This document shows, piece after piece, positions 2,796-32,789 of a stretch of 64,000 bases of DNA (the first letter of the stretch is position 1; every line of letters starts with the position of its first letter). The translations under genes and the position numbers were made by a program. The notes beneath the pieces are model-generated. The model searched no databases. It saw nothing but the letters and a program-made list of their open reading frames with translations, and was not told the DNA's origin. The stretch comes from a virus (taxonomy: Duplodnaviria > Caudoviricetes): the IMG/VR virus record IMGVR_UViG_3300038679_000032, positions 516 to 64,515 of that record; one strand, given 5' to 3'.

Positions 2796-3560
2796 TTACG
2801 GAATAGCAACACACAAAGACGGTTGGAATGGAACGCTGACACTATCTTTTTTAGACCTATTTACATCACCCCACATGGGTTGTAGGTTCGACAGGCTCCA
2901 ACACCGCTTAAAATCCAAATCTTCCGGTTTTTCAAAATTGAATGCAGAGATTGGAATTATGTGATCAACATGCCATTCTCCATAATTATCCCAAGACATT
3001 CCATCAATAAACTTCCTCTCAAGAATTACAACAAGGTCGTTTATTCCATACCCAACAAGAGACTCCCACTTCCTGTTCCTCTTTGTTCCGTTTTGAAGGC
3101 TCGCAATAATACCGGACGATATTGCATGAACCAATCTCCCCTTGGGAGTACTGCGCCTCTTGGTGTTCGCACGCCTCATCTGTTCCCTGTATCTATCGGG
3201 ATACTTCCGTCGCCACAGCCTTAGCGCATCTCGCATTTGTGGTACATTTCTGCGTTGCCATTTTAATTTACTTGCCCGTACCTTGTCGGGATTTTCATTT
3301 TTCCACTTTTCAACAGAACGAATAACCGTCTGTGGATGCTTTTTTCTCCATTCTTTTTGTTGTTCAAGAATCTTATCCCTGTTGGATAAATACAGTCCCT
3401 TCCTCCTCTTATTGATTTCATCTCTGTGTAAAGCATAATACTCCATACTTTTCTTCGCACTACACAATCTACATTGTGAATAACGACCATCCTTTATTTT
3501 TTTGCAATGCCAAAAATCATCTAACGGTTTGACTTCCCCACACACAGTACATCGCTTCAT
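2796..3560 (-). mobile_element. Free-standing HNH homing endonuclease 1
   Basis: N-terminal CxxC zinc finger (MKRCTVCGEVK...CRLC) and C-terminal WHVDHIIP...NLQPMW...N; starts immediately after the terL stop. Confidence 0.88.
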
Positions 3561-16219: not shown

Positions 16220-16939
16220 TTATAAGGGTAATACTTCTTGAGCCAATCTATCCACCGCTATTTTGCAATACTTTTCTTCAATCTCTATTCCAATGGCCTT
16301 GCGGCCTAACTGCTTGGCGGCGACCAAAGTAGTGCCGGAACCCATGAAGGGGTCAAGGATGGTGCCTGCTGGTGGACAGGAAACACGAATCAATTTATTG
16401 CAAATCCCGACCGGTTTTTCTGCCGGATGTGTTCTCCCTGAACCGGCGATGGTTGTAAAAACCTTGCTCATTAAGCGGTAATCTTCGCACAGGAAATAGC
16501 TTCCCGGTTTCCTCATGCTCGCAATGTATTCGAGATCATGAAGAAAGTGATTATTTTTAGCGGGGATTGGGTTTGTTTTATGCATCACAAGGAGGTCATA
16601 AAGAAGCCCTTCCGATTCGGCATGATTAAGATATTTCGCTATAAGGGTCTTGTTGCAAAAAAAGTATGCCGTCTTAAATTTATTCCGAAGACCGTTCAAT
16701 ATTTCAAGCGGATCGAACTTGTCACAGGAGAGCTTTTTTAAGTCATTAAGATATTCTCGCGGCTCTCTTGTTAAGCCATGCCACTTTACGCCATAGAAAC
16801 CACCACCACACGCCTCAAAATTATACGGCGGGTCAGTCAGCACCAAGTCCACAGGCTCAAGGTGCGGCAGGATGTCACGACAATCGCCGTGGTAAATCGT
16901 TATCCCGGCATGGTCGTAATAAGGCTCTGGCAAACTCAT
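16220..16939 (-). CDS. DNA amino-methyltransferase (N6A/N4C, beta class)
   Basis: DPPY catalytic motif precedes DPFMGSGTT SAM-binding motif. Confidence 0.92.
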   Translation of the reverse strand: MSLPEPYYDHAGITIYHGDCRDILPHLEPVDLVLTDPPYNFEACGGGFYGVKWHGLTREPREYLNDLKKLSCDKFDPLEILNGLRNKFKTAYFFCNKTLIAKYLNHAESEGLLYDLLVMHKTNPIPAKNNHFLHDLEYIASMRKPGSYFLCEDYRLMSKVFTTIAGSGRTHPAEKPVGICNKLIRVSCPPAGTILDPFMGSGTTLVAAKQLGRKAIGIEIEEKYCKIAVDRLAQEVLPL

Positions 16940-16948
16940 CCTAATTCC

Positions 16949-17164
16949 TCATAGTATTTCGCTACCCTTTTTAATCCGCTTTCTGTCTTCTATTCTACGG
17001 CCACGATCATCATTCAACTCTTTACTTTTCTCTGTAAGGGCGGCAAGATGGTCGGTGTAGAGGACATAATCGCCATCATTGTCTTCCAACATGATACCCG
17101 ATGGATACCCCCTATCTTGTGGGTGGTATTCTACAGATGGGTCGTATCTTTTAATCTTTTCCAT
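16949..17164 (-). CDS. Hypothetical protein (Ead-like YVLYTDH motif)
   Basis: AGGAGG SD preceded by a palindrome copy. Confidence 0.6.
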   Translation of the reverse strand: MEKIKRYDPSVEYHPQDRGYPSGIMLEDNDGDYVLYTDHLAALTEKSKELNDDRGRRIEDRKRIKKGSEIL

Positions 17165-26581: not shown

Positions 26582-26791
26582 TTATCCCCCATCTCCCCCC
26601 GGATCACCCTTCCTTGCCCCGCCTCCACTTATGAATGCCGCAATAGCCACAACCACGTTAATAACTATGTTTTCAGGGTCCACAAGGTTCGCCATCGCCA
26701 CCATCGCTATCGCCGTTAGGCAGACTAACGCCGCTATCTTTTCCCTCACCGTCCCTGATCTTTGCGAGAGCTTCGTCAAGGTCTTTTTCAT
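26582..26791 (-). CDS. Putative holin (2 TM)
   Basis: Basic N-terminus, two hydrophobic segments, near the endolysin. Confidence 0.55.
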   Translation of the reverse strand: MKKTLTKLSQRSGTVREKIAALVCLTAIAMVAMANLVDPENIVINVVVAIAAFISGGGARKGDPGGDGG

Positions 26792-27155
26792 CGCGTTCAT
26801 GCTCCCCATAATAAAAACACGCCCCCCCGAACATTCTTACTGCAAGGTAATAAGCCAAAGCCAAAGCCTGATAATGAGGCCACCATCCCGCATCTTTTCT
26901 CATCGCTTCATAAAACTGTAAATCGGCTTTTTCCCTGTCTTTTTCAGTACATCCGATCCAGTAGTTAAAATCGTGAATCATACAGGATGCACTAAAAGTA
27001 AACTCCGGGACCGGAACCCAGCCCCCCTTTGGTCCTCACCCATTTGCTATAAACATTCTCTCTGCCGGGGTAAGGTGTCGCCACCGCAGGGGTTCGCTGT
27101 GATTTCTTGGCACGGTTGGCTGATTAAAAAACTTTTCTTCGTTGTTAATCATCAT
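26673..27155 (-). CDS. NGxG...CxxHD (PLA2-like/DUF1353-like) protein with in-frame TGA at codon 40: selenoprotein or nonsense allele
   Basis: ATG overlaps the endolysin stop; frame reads ...FIANG[TGA]GPKGGWVPVPEFTFSASCMIHDFNYW. Confidence 0.6.
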
Positions 27156-27592
27156 CCATTCCTTATCATCTTGACAATTTCTTTGGCCCTGGAATTGACT
27201 TGTCTATACCATAGACTGTCAATCATTTCGTCGGCGGCGGTATCCCAATCCCCTCTTTCAATCGCTTCCCTCATCTTTCTAAATTTAAGTGCCCCGGCGA
27301 CCCCGACATTAAAAACGAAATCAACCAATGCGTCTTTTCGGTTATCTGAAAACTTGTCAAAGTCTTTATAAATCGCCCTGCATTGCCTGAACACGGCATC
27401 AATGGAAATATCCAGTAAAAGTTCTGCCATTTCTTCGGTGATTTTCCCTGTCATTCTGAGGCAAGACGCAATATCCGGGGGGAGTTTGTTCGCATCGAGG
27501 TTCCATCCGTATCCGATAGTCATGTGCCCCGTCGGGCAGACATACTTGCAAAGCCTCAAACCCTCATGCCTCTTAATCATGTCTCGGAGCAT
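27152..27592 (-). CDS. Endolysin, phage lysozyme (GH24-like)
   Basis: HEGLRL..Y.CPTG..TIGYG.NL; AADEMIDSLWYRQV..RA. Confidence 0.88.
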   Translation of the reverse strand: MLRDMIKRHEGLRLCKYVCPTGHMTIGYGWNLDANKLPPDIASCLRMTGKITEEMAELLLDISIDAVFRQCRAIYKDFDKFSDNRKDALVDFVFNVGVAGALKFRKMREAIERGDWDTAADEMIDSLWYRQVNSRAKEIVKMIRNG

Positions 27593-27594
27593 AT

Positions 27595-27894
27595 TTAACC
27601 CCTTGTCGTGTCAATGACCTGTCCTTCGGGAGAATGCTTGTGGTGTTTTACGACATCCCACAGGTCATCGTGTTCTCTGGTCTTATCGGAACACACATCA
27701 TCCACCAAATCCGTTATGACCTTTCTCCGTTCCGCACATATCGGTTCGCCTACCTTGTTCTTGATTTGCAAACACAAGTCCTTCATCCGTTCCTCAAGAC
27801 CATCAATCCACCGCTTGATGAAGAAGGCCAGCACCGCGACGAGTGCCGTAAACACCCCGCCATTTAGGAATACAACTTCAATCGGAACGGACAT
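27595..27894 (-). CDS. Single-TM lysis-region protein (holin/antiholin-like)
   Basis: TM segment plus coiled coil immediately upstream of the endolysin. Confidence 0.5.
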   Translation of the reverse strand: MSVPIEVVFLNGGVFTALVAVLAFFIKRWIDGLEERMKDLCLQIKNKVGEPICAERRKVITDLVDDVCSDKTREHDDLWDVVKHHKHSPEGQVIDTTRG

Positions 27895-27905
27895 AATAGC
27901 CTCCT

Positions 27906-28943
27906 TTACAAAACCACCCCCGCATATCCACGGAGAACCGCGTCGAGCCGTGCCATCTGGACGGCGGTGAGTTCTTCGGCAACGAGACACAAGACCGCCA
28001 TTTTCCCCTGTGCTGGATATTCTACCGCCCCGCCAGTTCCGAGGTGATATGGTCCGACAAGAGCCGCCTTGTTTTCCATAGCCACATACGATCCGTTGCT
28101 GGAATCCGTGTCATCCACAGCCACACCATTAAAGAAAAGGTTGATTGCATCCGCCGTCACCCCGGTCCCCTTGGAAAACCCGTATGTAACCCAAACTCCA
28201 CGATATGCGGTTAGTGCGGTGTCATAGATGCGCCCGATGTATGCTCCCGAAACACTATCGTCCCAACAGCGGAAATATAGTTTCTCTCCAGTTAAGTAAA
28301 AATTATATTCCCGGTTTGTTGATCCCGTAGTTGTGTCGTCCTTGGCGAGCAGATATTGCGTGGATGTATATGATGTGTTAAACAATACTATTGCCGAGAA
28401 CGCACTGTCCGCACTCCCGTTCCCGAATGTCAAATCCGCCGCATCGGGGGTGTTCCAGAGATGGGTGGCATCAAATGTCAGATACGGTGCAAGGCCGCTC
28501 ACTCCCGGCGTGCAGGTCGAGGCGTTGATGGCGTTTAGCGAGGCATCCCGTAGCGTCGTGACATGGGTAGTCACCCCGCCGATGGTGCTTCGCTCCGTGA
28601 TGGTGCTTACCGCCCCGGTCTGATCGAAAACGAGGAACAGGCGGATATTCGCCGGGGTGATAATGCCGTAAACTGCGTTTATCATCTGACCCTTGGCGTT
28701 TTCAAACACCCCTTGATGTGGTTGAAGCACCCATCTCTTGTTCCCCCCGTTGGCATCCGGGGCGATGATTCGTGGAGAAGATTCCGTAGCCGCAGAATCA
28801 TCATCGAGGATATAGGTGTATGTGTACCCCCCTACGGTGACATACGCCATGTCCTTGTCGGCAAGACCAGCCCCGTCTATTGCGTCCAATGCCCCGGTTC
28901 CGCCCCCGGTTAATGCTATTGCCGGATATACATATTTAGCCAT
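27906..28943 (-). CDS. Virion/receptor-binding protein with LamG-like C-terminal domain
   Basis: Gly-rich anchor; beta-sandwich pattern (FSAIVLF...YLLAK...W...FFNG). Confidence 0.6.
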   Translation of the reverse strand: MAKYVYPAIALTGGGTGALDAIDGAGLADKDMAYVTVGGYTYTYILDDDSAATESSPRIIAPDANGGNKRWVLQPHQGVFENAKGQMINAVYGIITPANIRLFLVFDQTGAVSTITERSTIGGVTTHVTTLRDASLNAINASTCTPGVSGLAPYLTFDATHLWNTPDAADLTFGNGSADSAFSAIVLFNTSYTSTQYLLAKDDTTTGSTNREYNFYLTGEKLYFRCWDDSVSGAYIGRIYDTALTAYRGVWVTYGFSKGTGVTADAINLFFNGVAVDDTDSSNGSYVAMENKAALVGPYHLGTGGAVEYPAQGKMAVLCLVAEELTAVQMARLDAVLRGYAGVVL

Positions 28944-29148
28944 GTTTCAACTCCTTTTCTCTGTAATACTTCAGTTTAAGGTGCATGCTCTTTGCCATCG
29001 CGGTTGCGATTCGGCACTTCAATTTAATATCTTCGTTATCGGTCAACTTGTAAATATCCCTTAAAGTCTGGCAAATGGAGTGATGCCCCTCATATCGGGT
29101 ATTCTCCATGACTTCTTCGCTTACCGGGGCCACTTTTTTATACGGCAT
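28936..29148 (-). CDS. Small protein with CxTxRDIY domain
   Basis: Paralogous to the C-half of 35615..36049. Confidence 0.65.
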   Translation of the reverse strand: MPYKKVAPVSEEVMENTRYEGHHSICQTLRDIYKLTDNEDIKLKCRIATAMAKSMHLKLKYYREKELKHG

Positions 29149-30088
29149 CGTTCAAGTACCATTCAATGTATTTGTCCAACCCGTCTTGGATCGTGTGCTT
29201 CGGGTCATACCCGAAACTCTCTTTGGCTTTAGTTATGTCTGCGTAAGTCATTGTCGCTTCCCCTTCCATTAAGGGGGCGTGCTTGATTACCGCGTCTTTT
29301 TTTAGGCGGTTCTCAAGGGCAAAGACAAGATCGCTCAGTAAGATCGCCTTCCCGGACCCCAAATTATAAATCTCATATCCGTGCTTTTTAGAAAGTATCT
29401 TCACAATCCCATCCACAACATCATCGACATAAGTAAAATCTCTTTTTACTTCATCCCCGCCGTGAACGGTCATTTCCGCCTTATGGTGAATCAGTCTTGT
29501 AAATAGAGGTATCGCCATATCCGTCCTCTGTCTTGGCCCGTACACCGTGAAGGGCCTGATACAAGCAATGTCCATTTTGTGAAGGTAGTGATAGGTATAG
29601 CAGATAAGTTCCCCAGCTTTCTTAGATGCGGCATAAGGGCAGAGGGGTTCCGTGACAACTTCCGTTTCCTTCCACGGGACATTGGGGTTGTTCCCGTACA
29701 CACTCGAAGAAGAAGCGAAGACGAATCTTTCGACTTCATTCCTCCTGCAAAACTCCAAGACATTCACGGTCCCGGTAATGTTCACATTGGAATGTAAGGC
29801 GGGGTTCTGGACTGATACTCTCACTCCGGCTTGGGCCGCAAGGTGAACCACCGCATCTATCCTCCAACACGAAAACGCCTTTTCAAGACTCATTGGTTCC
29901 GTGACGCTACCAGAAATCAGCTTGAAATTAGGGTTGGAGATGTTATGCTCGATGTTCTTCCACTTCAAAGCCGGGTTGTAGAGATTGTCGAATGAGTCAA
30001 AACAAATCACCCGTTCCCCGTCTTTCAGTAATCGGTCTATCAGGTGCGAGCCGATGAATCCGCAGCCACCTGGGATCAGTATTGTCAC
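29138..30088 (-). CDS. NAD-dependent nucleotide-sugar epimerase/dehydratase (UDP-glucuronate epimerase-like)
   Basis: GGCGFIG, ASSSSVYG, YAASK, FTVYGP. Confidence 0.93.
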   Translation of the reverse strand: MTILIPGGCGFIGSHLIDRLLKDGERVICFDSFDNLYNPALKWKNIEHNISNPNFKLISGSVTEPMSLEKAFSCWRIDAVVHLAAQAGVRVSVQNPALHSNVNITGTVNVLEFCRRNEVERFVFASSSSVYGNNPNVPWKETEVVTEPLCPYAASKKAGELICYTYHYLHKMDIACIRPFTVYGPRQRTDMAIPLFTRLIHHKAEMTVHGGDEVKRDFTYVDDVVDGIVKILSKKHGYEIYNLGSGKAILLSDLVFALENRLKKDAVIKHAPLMEGEATMTYADITKAKESFGYDPKHTIQDGLDKYIEWYLNDAV

Positions 30089-30453
30089 GATTCACTCCTC
30101 TTAAATTTATCGCAGTACCCGTTTACAAAATGTCCGTCTTCGTGCAAATCTAATCTACAACCACCCATATCAGAACCTATCTGCCACTGATAAAAATTAG
30201 CACAATCCTTGCAGTTTTCCTTATATGTGAGTTTCTTTAGGTATTTGACGGGTCTGCATTTACAAAATTCGCTAAAATCAGTAGAGGGCTCATAAGATTC
30301 ACTAAACCCCATATTGTGTGGAAGCACCATAAATCTTCTATAATTTGGGCGACGAATAACTGCTATCAATTTGCATTTTGAACACAACTCAATATACCCA
30401 TCCAGTTTCTCATACTTTTTTTTGTAATACGTCGCTAATTCAAGATTGTTCAC
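30085..30453 (-). CDS. Cys-rich hypothetical protein
   Basis: GTG start overlapping the upstream TGA; GGAGG SD; AT-rich. Confidence 0.55.
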   Translation of the reverse strand: MNNLELATYYKKKYEKLDGYIELCSKCKLIAVIRRPNYRRFMVLPHNMGFSESYEPSTDFSEFCKCRPVKYLKKLTYKENCKDCANFYQWQIGSDMGGCRLDLHEDGHFVNGYCDKFKRSES

Positions 30454-32789
30454 AGTTTCAAATCCTCCCATCCCGGCAATTTATTGACATGAGATTCAGT
30501 CCAGTTCTTACAGGGGTTCCTGAACTTGTCAGGACTCCACCTCGAAGATGTGAGGTTATACTTGTGGCGCACATCCAAGTTGGCAATCTTCGTTTCAAAG
30601 AAGTCGGACTTGTAATCATCGACCCTTTCCGGCCTTCCGTGGGTTCCCGGTTCAAACCCCATTCTCCGGGAGAACCCCACTTCCTCTACCTTCCTCACCC
30701 TTTCTCGATAGTGCTTCAGGAACAACTCCCTGTACGCTACGCATTGGGACACTTTTTTGCAGTCCCAGAAAACGGCATGGCCGTCCGCTTGCCTCACTTG
30801 CCAATTATTTTTATTGTAATAAAACCTGTCTTTACATAACGGTGTGAACTCAAAGTGTTCCGGGGTATAAAGAACATCGTGTTCGCACAGCCAGACGAGT
30901 TCCGTGTCTATCCGTTCAAGACCGGCGAGGATTTGCTTGAACATTGTCAGGTATCCTCGTTCAAGGTTCAGAACAACATTGTCTCCGAACTCAACCGGTT
31001 TAAGTGTGACGGAAACGATAGGGAGGCCCGTGTCGAGAAGTCGTTGCTGAACCATCCTACCCAATCGGTCCTCAATCCTGTTGTCGGAATAATATACAAT
31101 GCCCCGGTCACTATGGGCGGCGGATACAAATTGTCCATTGTCATTTCTCTGTCTTCCCTCCGCCGCAATGGACATTGTTTCGGAGATTTTATGCTTCGTT
31201 TCGTCTGAATGTTTTTTCCCAAGCATTCCGCGTGGGTGGCCCCTGTCGGCCCAGACTGCAATGCCTTGCATTTTTTCGCCATAAAGCCTCACCCTCTCAT
31301 CTGTTTCTTTTGTAAGATTTTTATTCCACGGTGTGTGTCCAATTTTTGAATTGCTTATTTTTTCCTTTATATCGTCAGTCCAAGGGATACCCTTATTCCA
31401 TGCTTCTTTGCCCTTATGAGACTCTCGCATCTTTTCAATAGATTCGGGGGAATGCTTTTTCCCATAAAACCCATTTCCCTCTCCGCTTTGTTGTTGACTC
31501 ATTTTTAGCAAGGAATCTTCAGTATGTTTTCTTCCGAGACTTGAACCAGCTACCGGGTTTATGTTGTACATATTGTCCCATCCGATGTTCTGCGAATATG
31601 TGTCTATAAATTGTTGCTCACAAGAGACAAGATCATTGGGTTTACAAAAAAATTCTATATCAAAAGTAAACGCTTCCTCACCATATTTGTTCCACGATTT
31701 CTGTAAATGATCGTTTTCGTGGTTTCCTTTGTGAAACATTTTTAGGTGCTCCCCAAACCTTCTTGATATGTCGATTGCTGATCCGACATACACCTTTCCG
31801 TTTTTTTTGTTTTTAATAGAATAAACTCCTGCTCGATCAACACGCATTTCATCTTGCAACAGTTTATCCAAATCCCCCTGTGACCACCCAGGGATGGGCC
31901 AAAATTGCTTTATTACCTTAGAAAGTGGATATATCTGTTGTTCCCACTTATTCTCGAAAAACAAATCCCTCGCATATTTTTTTGCACCCTGTATTTGTCT
32001 TCCTGATGCTGGCCAAGGGAACCCAAAATCCCCCCCCTTGGTGCGGAAAAGGTGTGCATACCAAGTGTTATGATTGCAAACAACCACTCCACCAGACAAG
32101 CGTGTTCGCAATGAAACTTCGATCCCCTGTGACCCCCAATTACCAAACTCCTCGTCGCACAGATTCAGTTCGTGATACTTCTCTCTCGTACACATGAAGA
32201 ATGAACCCTGCAAAGACATGGTTTCGGTGAGTTCCCCTTTTCCTTCGGGGCGGGACTTGAACTCCCTGAAGTATTGAAAGTGCGGTTCCGGGTCGAAGCA
32301 GTAAGAAGAACATTGGGGGTTCGCTTTACCAATCCACACAATGTCCTTGTGAAAGTCTGTTTTATTGTCGCACTTAGGACAGTCGGTTGGTCGGTTCCCC
32401 TGATACCTACGGTCCCCGCACTTAGAGCATACCCAGTCAAATACATGGAGGTTCCTCATTACGGGGACCATCGTGAAATTGTCCTGCATCTTGTCCATCA
32501 ACTTAACATCGAATCCTTCATCAAAAGCACAATGAGCGTCTGTTTTAACAAGATATTTTGACTTACTGATACGGGCGGCATAATTTGTTCCCGCCCTCTG
32601 GCCCACCGCTTCGGAGAAGTGTAGTAAGGTCACTTTGGGATTGTCTTTAATAGGCGGGTCCGGCCAGTACCCGTCTAATACAGCTATAATTTCCGTATTC
32701 CCTCTGATGTTTCTGAGAAGGTCTTCCACCGTATTAGACAGGAACTCCTCATTTCGTGCCGGGATTATCACGCTCAAATCATAGATCAT
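30450..32789 (-). CDS. GT2 glycosyltransferase - GIY-YIG endonuclease - second GT-like domain fusion
   Basis: SVIIPARNE and DAHC (GT-A); GVY...YVG plus NUMOD3-like repeats (aa ~315-555); GIVYY...EHDVLY domain. Confidence 0.88.
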   Translation of the reverse strand: MIYDLSVIIPARNEEFLSNTVEDLLRNIRGNTEIIAVLDGYWPDPPIKDNPKVTLLHFSEAVGQRAGTNYAARISKSKYLVKTDAHCAFDEGFDVKLMDKMQDNFTMVPVMRNLHVFDWVCSKCGDRRYQGNRPTDCPKCDNKTDFHKDIVWIGKANPQCSSYCFDPEPHFQYFREFKSRPEGKGELTETMSLQGSFFMCTREKYHELNLCDEEFGNWGSQGIEVSLRTRLSGGVVVCNHNTWYAHLFRTKGGDFGFPWPASGRQIQGAKKYARDLFFENKWEQQIYPLSKVIKQFWPIPGWSQGDLDKLLQDEMRVDRAGVYSIKNKKNGKVYVGSAIDISRRFGEHLKMFHKGNHENDHLQKSWNKYGEEAFTFDIEFFCKPNDLVSCEQQFIDTYSQNIGWDNMYNINPVAGSSLGRKHTEDSLLKMSQQQSGEGNGFYGKKHSPESIEKMRESHKGKEAWNKGIPWTDDIKEKISNSKIGHTPWNKNLTKETDERVRLYGEKMQGIAVWADRGHPRGMLGKKHSDETKHKISETMSIAAEGRQRNDNGQFVSAAHSDRGIVYYSDNRIEDRLGRMVQQRLLDTGLPIVSVTLKPVEFGDNVVLNLERGYLTMFKQILAGLERIDTELVWLCEHDVLYTPEHFEFTPLCKDRFYYNKNNWQVRQADGHAVFWDCKKVSQCVAYRELFLKHYRERVRKVEEVGFSRRMGFEPGTHGRPERVDDYKSDFFETKIANLDVRHKYNLTSSRWSPDKFRNPCKNWTESHVNKLPGWEDLKL
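31110..31850 (-). mobile_element. In-frame GIY-YIG homing endonuclease insert
   Basis: GVYSIKNKKNGKVYVGS, HL..SWNKYG, E...I, YN, repeated GKKHS/WNKG; AT-richer than the flanks. Confidence 0.85.

Follow-up and report, generated by a model that had tools for sequence, protein, structure and literature searches.

Bacterial selenoprotein genes carry within the open reading frame a SECIS element that is read by SelB, with Escherichia coli fdhF as the prototype (PMC9312934, PMC13326102); by definition the bacterial element is a stem-loop that follows the UGA directly on its 3' side (PMC9312934), and the canonical example in BSepDB has its loop at nucleotides 21-23 (PMC13326102). BSepDB reports 111 bacterial selenoprotein families, and its main text, the supplementary family table not being covered by this statement, mentions neither phages nor phospholipases (PMC13326102). 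The viral selenoproteins listed in a recoding review are poxvirus glutathione peroxidases, those of molluscum contagiosum and fowlpox (PMC8310308), and in the literature searched, which describes selenocysteine insertion for cells and poxviruses, no phage selenoprotein has been described. On the side of the enzymes, the group XIV secreted phospholipases A2 (PLA2; PF09056), such as Streptomyces violaceoruber SvPLA2 (1FAZ/1LWB) and Tuber borchii TbSP1 (4AUP), possess a His/Asp dyad and two structural disulfides formed by four cysteines (PMC11525133).

The gene for a PLA2-like protein of an uncultured groundwater phage combines features of these systems. We consider it likely that the UGA at its codon 40 encodes selenocysteine, although there is no selenium or protein evidence and selenocysteine machinery in the host is unproven. 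The 64.5-kb IMG/VR virus record is rated complete by CheckV; the window, that is the whole stretch of 64,000 nucleotides analysed, covers nearly all of it and carries most of its genes on the minus strand. The locus contains the following features.

26673..27155, minus strand: PLA2-like gene, the candidate selenoprotein, of 160 codons with one internal TGA and a terminal TGA stop.
27038..27036, minus strand: the in-frame TGA, codon 40, proposed selenocysteine codon.
27007..27025, minus strand: SECIS-like hairpin found by folding, with a stem of 8 bp and the loop GUU (27017..27015).
26970..26984, minus strand: codons for C58-M-I-H61-D62, the CxxHD active-site motif (His/Asp dyad) with the second invariant Cys; C58, H61 and D62 are invariant columns.
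27160..27164, minus strand: Shine-Dalgarno-like AAGGA, 4 and 7 nt ahead of the ATGs at 27155 and 27152.
27152..27592, minus strand: endolysin, a GH24 phage lysozyme (PF00959, E 4e-17; phrog_7 endolysin, E 1.5e-26).
27595..27990, minus strand: small protein, taken from the ORF list, that has a single hydrophobic segment and immediately precedes the endolysin.

An earlier sequence-only reading of this DNA had described an ATG placed on the endolysin stop, followed by 39 codons, a TGA and 120 further codons, with the junction ANG*GPKGG..SC..HDF.YW, all of which is confirmed in the sequence, on the minus strand. The frame opens with the ATG 27155..27153, runs through 39 sense codons to the TGA 27038..27036 and through 120 sense codons to the terminal TGA 26675..26673, and the translated junction is ANG*GPKGG ... 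SC..HDFNYW. The start ATG overlaps the endolysin stop TGA 27154..27152 (ATGA), and the PLA2-like gene is translationally coupled to the GH24 lysozyme. The minus-strand gene order is a 345-aa tail-fibre-like ORF, the small membrane protein, the endolysin and the PLA2-like gene; the small protein has no match in Pfam or PHROG, and a holin-like function is inferred by position only. In another frame, the final 137 nt of the PLA2-like gene are shared with a 75-aa ORF that has two hydrophobic segments (window 26582-26809, minus strand). Gene callers take only the last 40 codons of this ORF, which may encode a membrane protein of the lysis cassette.

Metagenomes yield 83 homologues of the read-through protein, 100-160 aa long. 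Aligning 35 of them gives the family motif NGCG.KG ... C..HDFNYW, with N38, G39, C40, G41, K43, G44, C58, H61 and D62 among the invariant residues, and the TGA falls on the invariant C40; the motif CNGCG.KGG, given for the family in the sequence-only reading, is real, in the form CNGCGPKGG. The family profile matches solved microbial secreted PLA2 structures (4aup, 1faz/1lwb, 7ygk and 8k1w; E 5e-7 to 6e-6) in an alignment that spans the C..HD segment, and an AlphaFold model of the protein (pLDDT 81.7) superposes, over model residues 18-114, on 8k1w (Z 8.8), 7ygk (Z 8.2) and 4aup (Z 7.8), bacterial and fungal secreted PLA2s, with unrelated helical proteins giving lower Z. By profile and fold, the protein is therefore a small PLA2-like enzyme of the microbial secreted type, with a PLA2 fold and with both H61 and D62 of the CxxHD dyad invariant. 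It shares with the group XIV enzymes the all-helical fold (Z 7.8-8.8), the CxxHD dyad, the Cys three residues before the His and the small size. Unlike them, the phage family possesses no signal peptide, has an additional invariant NG-C/U-G-x-K-GG loop, resides in lysis or tail modules and has in some members one Cys changed to UGA; moreover, the window protein stays below the Pfam gathering threshold (20.1 bits against PF09056, cut-off 29.4), and many homologues bear precomputed PF09056 matches. Direct reading found no secretion signal, the N-terminal 39 residues being polar without a hydrophobic segment.

C40 (U here) and C58 are the only invariant cysteines of the family; the remaining two Cys positions are variable, and the window has Ala at residue 37. 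By analogy with the group XIV enzymes and without coordinates for the bond, residue 40 would probably form a selenylsulfide with Cys58, which lies three residues ahead of the catalytic His; this bond would replace one structural disulfide of group XIV PLA2. The Cys replaced by UGA is probably structural and not redox-catalytic. Selenocysteine at a structural, non-redox Cys position is unusual among selenoproteins.

Are the two pieces of the frame one gene? Uninterrupted Cys-type relatives such as P0013 have N-termini homologous to the 39 residues ahead of the TGA (PLRWRHLTPAER...ANG), and the two pieces therefore belong to a single gene. Gene callers annotate instead a 102-aa fragment (P0002) that starts at the ATG at 26981, which leaves a reading in which the locus makes two products, a 39-residue peptide and a 102-residue protein. 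We regard this as very improbable, given the homology of the N-terminal part to uninterrupted relatives; in addition, the sequence read directly has no Shine-Dalgarno-like purine run ahead of 26981, the invariant NG-C-G-K-GG loop and Cys58 would be missing from the 102-aa product, and in other TGA forms the TGA is preceded by only about 20 codons.

The TGA is not confined to this phage. A DNA pattern that demanded TGA at the invariant-Cys column plus the downstream family motifs retrieved NG-TGA-GPKGG from three viral contigs (two distinct sequences) and about 25 metagenome loci, true members of the family, whereas the same pattern gave 20 hits in 185,579 species genomes, all by chance and none in the family, which provides the background of the pattern; no Sec-type prophage, and hence no host, emerged from that search of species genomes. 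Counting the window, there are 19 distinct TGA-type sequences, divergent and both viral and metagenomic, all with open frames on both sides of the TGA. In a tree of 101 rows (20 TGA and 81 Cys forms), TGA occupies at least six positions and at least six to seven Cys/Sec state changes are needed, and one deep, well-supported clade unites 11 TGA and 3 Cys forms with branch lengths of up to 0.6. In no other column does UGA substitute for an amino acid; it always stands for the one invariant Cys. Among the TGA forms, pooled pN/pS amounts to 0.41 for the part upstream of the UGA and to 0.31 for the part downstream, with synonymous sites between the forms saturated (pS about 0.8); both halves of the gene are under purifying selection.

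The sequence-only reading had proposed a search for homologues with TGA or Cys at this column, and had named a TGA unique to this genome and an elevated dN/dS as observations that would refute it. The search yielded the about 18 other distinct TGA-type sequences, and neither refuting observation was made: besides the pN/pS values, Logan contigs from one groundwater and one coal run carry a 100% identical sequence including the TGA, and a contig of a 2013 hydrocarbon metagenome, the third study, spans the TGA without a difference, so that identity extends over three studies and 7 years. This identity rests on contigs and not on raw reads, and minority TGY variants are not excluded; among the sequencing runs containing the phage sequence, no RNA runs are listed. 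A plain nonsense mutation in a dead or dying gene, which would take a single change from TGY to TGA and has counterparts in broken copies of the family (L028 with a TGA at the other invariant Cys, L032 with in-frame TAA), is on these grounds strongly disfavoured and in our estimate very unlikely. It would have to account for about 19 distinct sequences that share the column at six or more tree positions with intact frames, for pN/pS of 0.3-0.4 on both sides despite saturated synonymous sites, for the identical sequence in three studies and for a hairpin that is kept by synonymous sites, as follows below.

Both broken copies are single cases, affected at other positions and without a hairpin. 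L028 (the same contig as L169; IMGVR_UViG_3300035388_000078) has, at 3148-3150, a TGA in the C58 column, on the presumed bonding partner of residue 40, and retains Cys in the C40 column; as the sole viral contig of this kind, with no hairpin after the TGA (z +0.52), it was rejected as a second selenocysteine position and probably represents a plain nonsense change. The homologue at L032:2998-3117 contains two in-frame TAA codons, one ahead of the NGCG motif and one past HDY, and is either a decayed copy or derives from a contig with unusual decoding.

Downstream of the TGA, an 8-bp hairpin around a GUU loop had been reported for the window; it is present, and its coordinates were correct. Counted with the U of UGA as nucleotide 1, nucleotides 14-21 (GGGGCUGG) pair with nucleotides 25-32 (CCGGUCCC) and the loop GUU occupies nucleotides 22-24. 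All 18 of 18 distinct TGA-type sequences form a hairpin of 6-9 bp with the apical loop at nucleotides 20-27 from the U of UGA, a geometry that matches the canonical SECIS of BSepDB with its loop at nucleotides 21-23 (PMC13326102), and 17 of the 18 loops contain GU (GUU, GUG, GUC, GUUC, GUCC, GGUC or CGUGC). Since the stem is made of Gly (GGN) and Pro (CCN) codons, some of the pairing comes with the peptide itself, and four controls were run on the hairpin for this reason. The median minimum free energy of nucleotides 10-40 is -13.3 kcal/mol in TGA forms (n=19) versus -7.4 kcal/mol in Cys forms (n=40; Mann-Whitney p 4e-8). Where the peptide GPKGGWVPVP is identical, all eight pairs are kept in 7 of 8 TGA forms versus 1 of 7 Cys forms, a difference that lies wholly in third-codon positions. 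Against synonymous recodings of their own peptide, the hairpins of the TGA forms are more stable (mean z -2.4; 15 of 19 at p<0.05; p 0.027 for the window), whereas Cys forms show a mean z of -0.37 with 4 of 48 at p<0.05; two of these four exceptions are closely related to TGA forms, which is what a recent switch from Sec to Cys would produce. Finally, in the Cys sisters of four TGA lineages the hairpin is lost in three (z +0.57, -0.81 and +1.37) and kept in one. Synonymous sites thus preserve the hairpin only in forms with UGA at this codon, which answers the question of hairpin conservation that the sequence-only reading had left to be checked.

Other signals of the RNA structure are weaker. 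A scan of 26800-27200 against Rfam with E up to 10 matched no SECIS family, and the window hairpin alone is not significant against dinucleotide shuffles (z -0.57). RNAalifold on 18 TGA forms recovers only four consensus pairs, column-wise covariation is modest (score 0.195 versus 0.124; 3 of 500 shuffles), and clear two-sided covariation is seen in one column pair only (CG, UG, GC, UA). The weakness of RNAalifold and column-wise covariation arises because subfamilies use shifted registers, those with other peptides (GAGAVVP, GGRVPVP) still forming the hairpin displaced by 1-3 nt. Although the hairpin of the window by itself does not exceed shuffles, the comparative evidence is far beyond chance, and the recurrence of the TGA, the conservation of the hairpin, purifying selection and the identity across three studies together support the initial view of the gene as a candidate phage selenoprotein.

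A structure after a leaky UGA can also raise readthrough, and the UGA may accordingly be decoded without selenium, either by a standard amino acid from a near-cognate tRNA (Trp, Cys or Arg) or as a regulated mix of the 39-residue and the full-length product. With selenocysteine machinery in the host unproven and residue 40 apparently structural and not redox-catalytic, this possibility mainly takes up the probability that remains beside selenocysteine. We nevertheless judge it unlikely, as UGA is found always at one invariant Cys and in no other column, the position of the hairpin and its GU loop fit bacterial SECIS geometry, and Cys and UGA interconvert repeatedly on the tree, the classic signature of Cys/Sec exchange (PMC9312934).

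TGA is a normal stop in this genome, as the sequence-only reading had stated: it terminates 25 of the 64 ORFs of 100 aa or more and is the commonest stop in this phage. Stop-codon-recoded phages exist, and every TGA might in principle be a sense codon in the phage or its host (code 4 or 25). Since TGA is the commonest terminator here and also ends genes in the other TGA-type contigs, genome-wide recoding is excluded; the endolysin and the PLA2-like gene themselves end in TGA, and the other in-frame TGA junction considered is made up of two genes. Global recoding of TGA is already refuted by this stop-codon usage, and we attach practically no probability to it. At the latter junction (window 16220-17164, minus strand), a 71-codon ORF ends in a TGA in frame with a following DNA methyltransferase with a DPPY motif; this second candidate for recoding was rejected as simply two adjacent genes. 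In a Cys-type relative on contig L184 (protein P0043, the Cys sister of L049), the gene translates to its database protein only with TAG read as Q; the database entry may extend by read-through past a stop codon, or TAG may be recoded in this contig.

The placement of the gene in a lysis cassette, suggested from its neighbours in the window, is supported by other lineages. Cell-wall hydrolases lie directly upstream of the PLA2-like gene, which is GH24 here, Peptidase_M15_3 in L128 and M15_4 in L147, and in L092 and L131 a DUF5675 protein takes this place. The PLA2-like genes of these TGA-type contigs are located as follows.

L128:4103-4438, PLA2-like gene.
L147:2396-2704, PLA2-like gene.
L092:6304-6729, PLA2-like gene.
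L131:6291-6683, PLA2-like gene.

As the gene adjoins cell-wall hydrolases that are not orthologous, this adjacency to peptidoglycan hydrolases of three unrelated families argues for a role in lysis, and DUF5675 itself may be an endolysin-type protein. Some Cys-type relatives adjoin tail-fibre-type genes instead, and a virion-associated role is not excluded. Mycobacteriophage LysB, a cutinase-like serine esterase, is a lipolytic accessory of lysis. Like LysB, the PLA2-like protein would be a lipid-cleaving enzyme encoded right after the endolysin and assumed to disrupt the outer lipid layer during lysis; unlike LysB, it has an unrelated fold and no shown activity. By this analogy it is inferred that the enzyme would breach membrane lipid after the wall has been cut.

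With regard to the host, no tRNA-Sec was found in the phage or in the other TGA-type loci, and these would therefore need selenocysteine machinery from the host. Groundwater, coal and hydrocarbon metagenomes contain the phage, which has no cultured relative, as the nearest terminase among GenBank phages is 26% identical; GenBank phages give neither a DNA nor a protein match to the PLA2-like gene. The named cellular relatives, with 60% identity for the terminase and 51-52% for the UDP-glucuronate-epimerase-like gene, are mostly MAGs of Thermodesulfobacteriota, Desulfobacterales or Deltaproteobacteria. Their labels are weak and mixed, and include 'Thermoplasmata archaeon' and Parcubacteria on small, probably mis-binned contigs. 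Of 201 genomes sampled from the phylum of a Syntrophaceae genome, 186 have selB above the curated cut-off, and in 401 genomes of one phylum the family profile finds only distant matches to the PLA2 core. The relatives are compatible with a selenocysteine-using host, which is only a hint, and the host is unidentified.

According to the mechanism that we propose, the gene would give rise to a roughly 160-residue PLA2-like enzyme of the phage lysis cassette, its codon 40 UGA being read as selenocysteine by the SelB/tRNA-Sec machinery of the host under the direction of the hairpin 14-32 nt downstream, a putative bacterial-type SECIS inside the coding region. The enzyme would attack the membrane lipid of the host at lysis in a role inferred to resemble that of LysB, and the host is inferred to be a Sec-using anaerobe, possibly one of the Desulfobacterota. 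The proposed mechanism itself is ordinary bacterial, consisting of UGA, in-ORF SECIS, SelB and tRNA-Sec. As in bacterial selenoproteins, the UGA lies opposite Cys, the stem-loop follows immediately 3' with its loop at about 21-27 nt and G/U in the loop, and Sec to Cys switches recur within the family. Unlike there, the gene is a phage gene whose carrier has no Sec machinery of its own, and Sec replaces a Cys that is probably structural instead of redox-catalytic. With the poxvirus glutathione peroxidases it shares that a virus gene depends on the Sec machinery of the host, the fowlpox SECIS likewise being situated in the coding region; those are, however, captured cellular genes with eukaryotic SECIS elements in eukaryotic viruses, whereas here a virus of bacteria, a bacterial-type hairpin and a phage-specific enzyme family are concerned. 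What is new is a virus of bacteria as carrier, the PLA2-like family, which the main text of BSepDB does not mention, and the replacement of a residue that is probably structural.

If the reading of codon 40 as selenocysteine holds, the gene would encode a selenoprotein of a bacterial virus that hijacks the recoding machinery of its host, and host range and burst would partly depend on that system and on selenium supply. The PLA2-like gene would then serve as a marker for host prediction, gene callers would systematically truncate such genes, as with the 102-aa fragment annotated here, and a compact natural pair of SECIS and enzyme would be at hand for asking why Sec is used over Cys at a non-redox position. 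In anoxic, reducing habitats that would not permit a disulfide, a selenylsulfide beside the active site could still form and persist, and inefficient UGA decoding could make the amount of a lysis factor depend on the selenium and SelB status of the host. Only tentatively, and with more doubt than confidence in its parts taken jointly, do we extend this to the view that phage lysis phospholipases have repeatedly swapped a structural disulfide Cys for Sec, using selenium for structure or timing and not for redox catalysis, with a selenylsulfide that holds in anoxic habitats.

Several further observations concern the phage and its relatives. A UDP-glucuronate 4-epimerase-like NAD-dependent epimerase, encoded between tail-fibre-like genes (window 29138-30088, minus strand), is likely an auxiliary gene for surface sugars. 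On an 831-kb bacterial contig (L166), a terminase-like GpA ATPase 60% identical to the window terminase is accompanied by Prim-Pol, resolvase and integrase, with no structural genes nearby; this prophage-like element looks like a satellite-like integrated element and is of a different kind. The terminase relatives P0103 and P0112, of about 800-900 aa, contain intein or LAGLIDADG domains, and a 779-aa ORF of the window (30450-32789, minus strand) has an embedded homing-endonuclease-type segment (phrog_314, residues 314-546), so that mobile insertions are common in this phage group.
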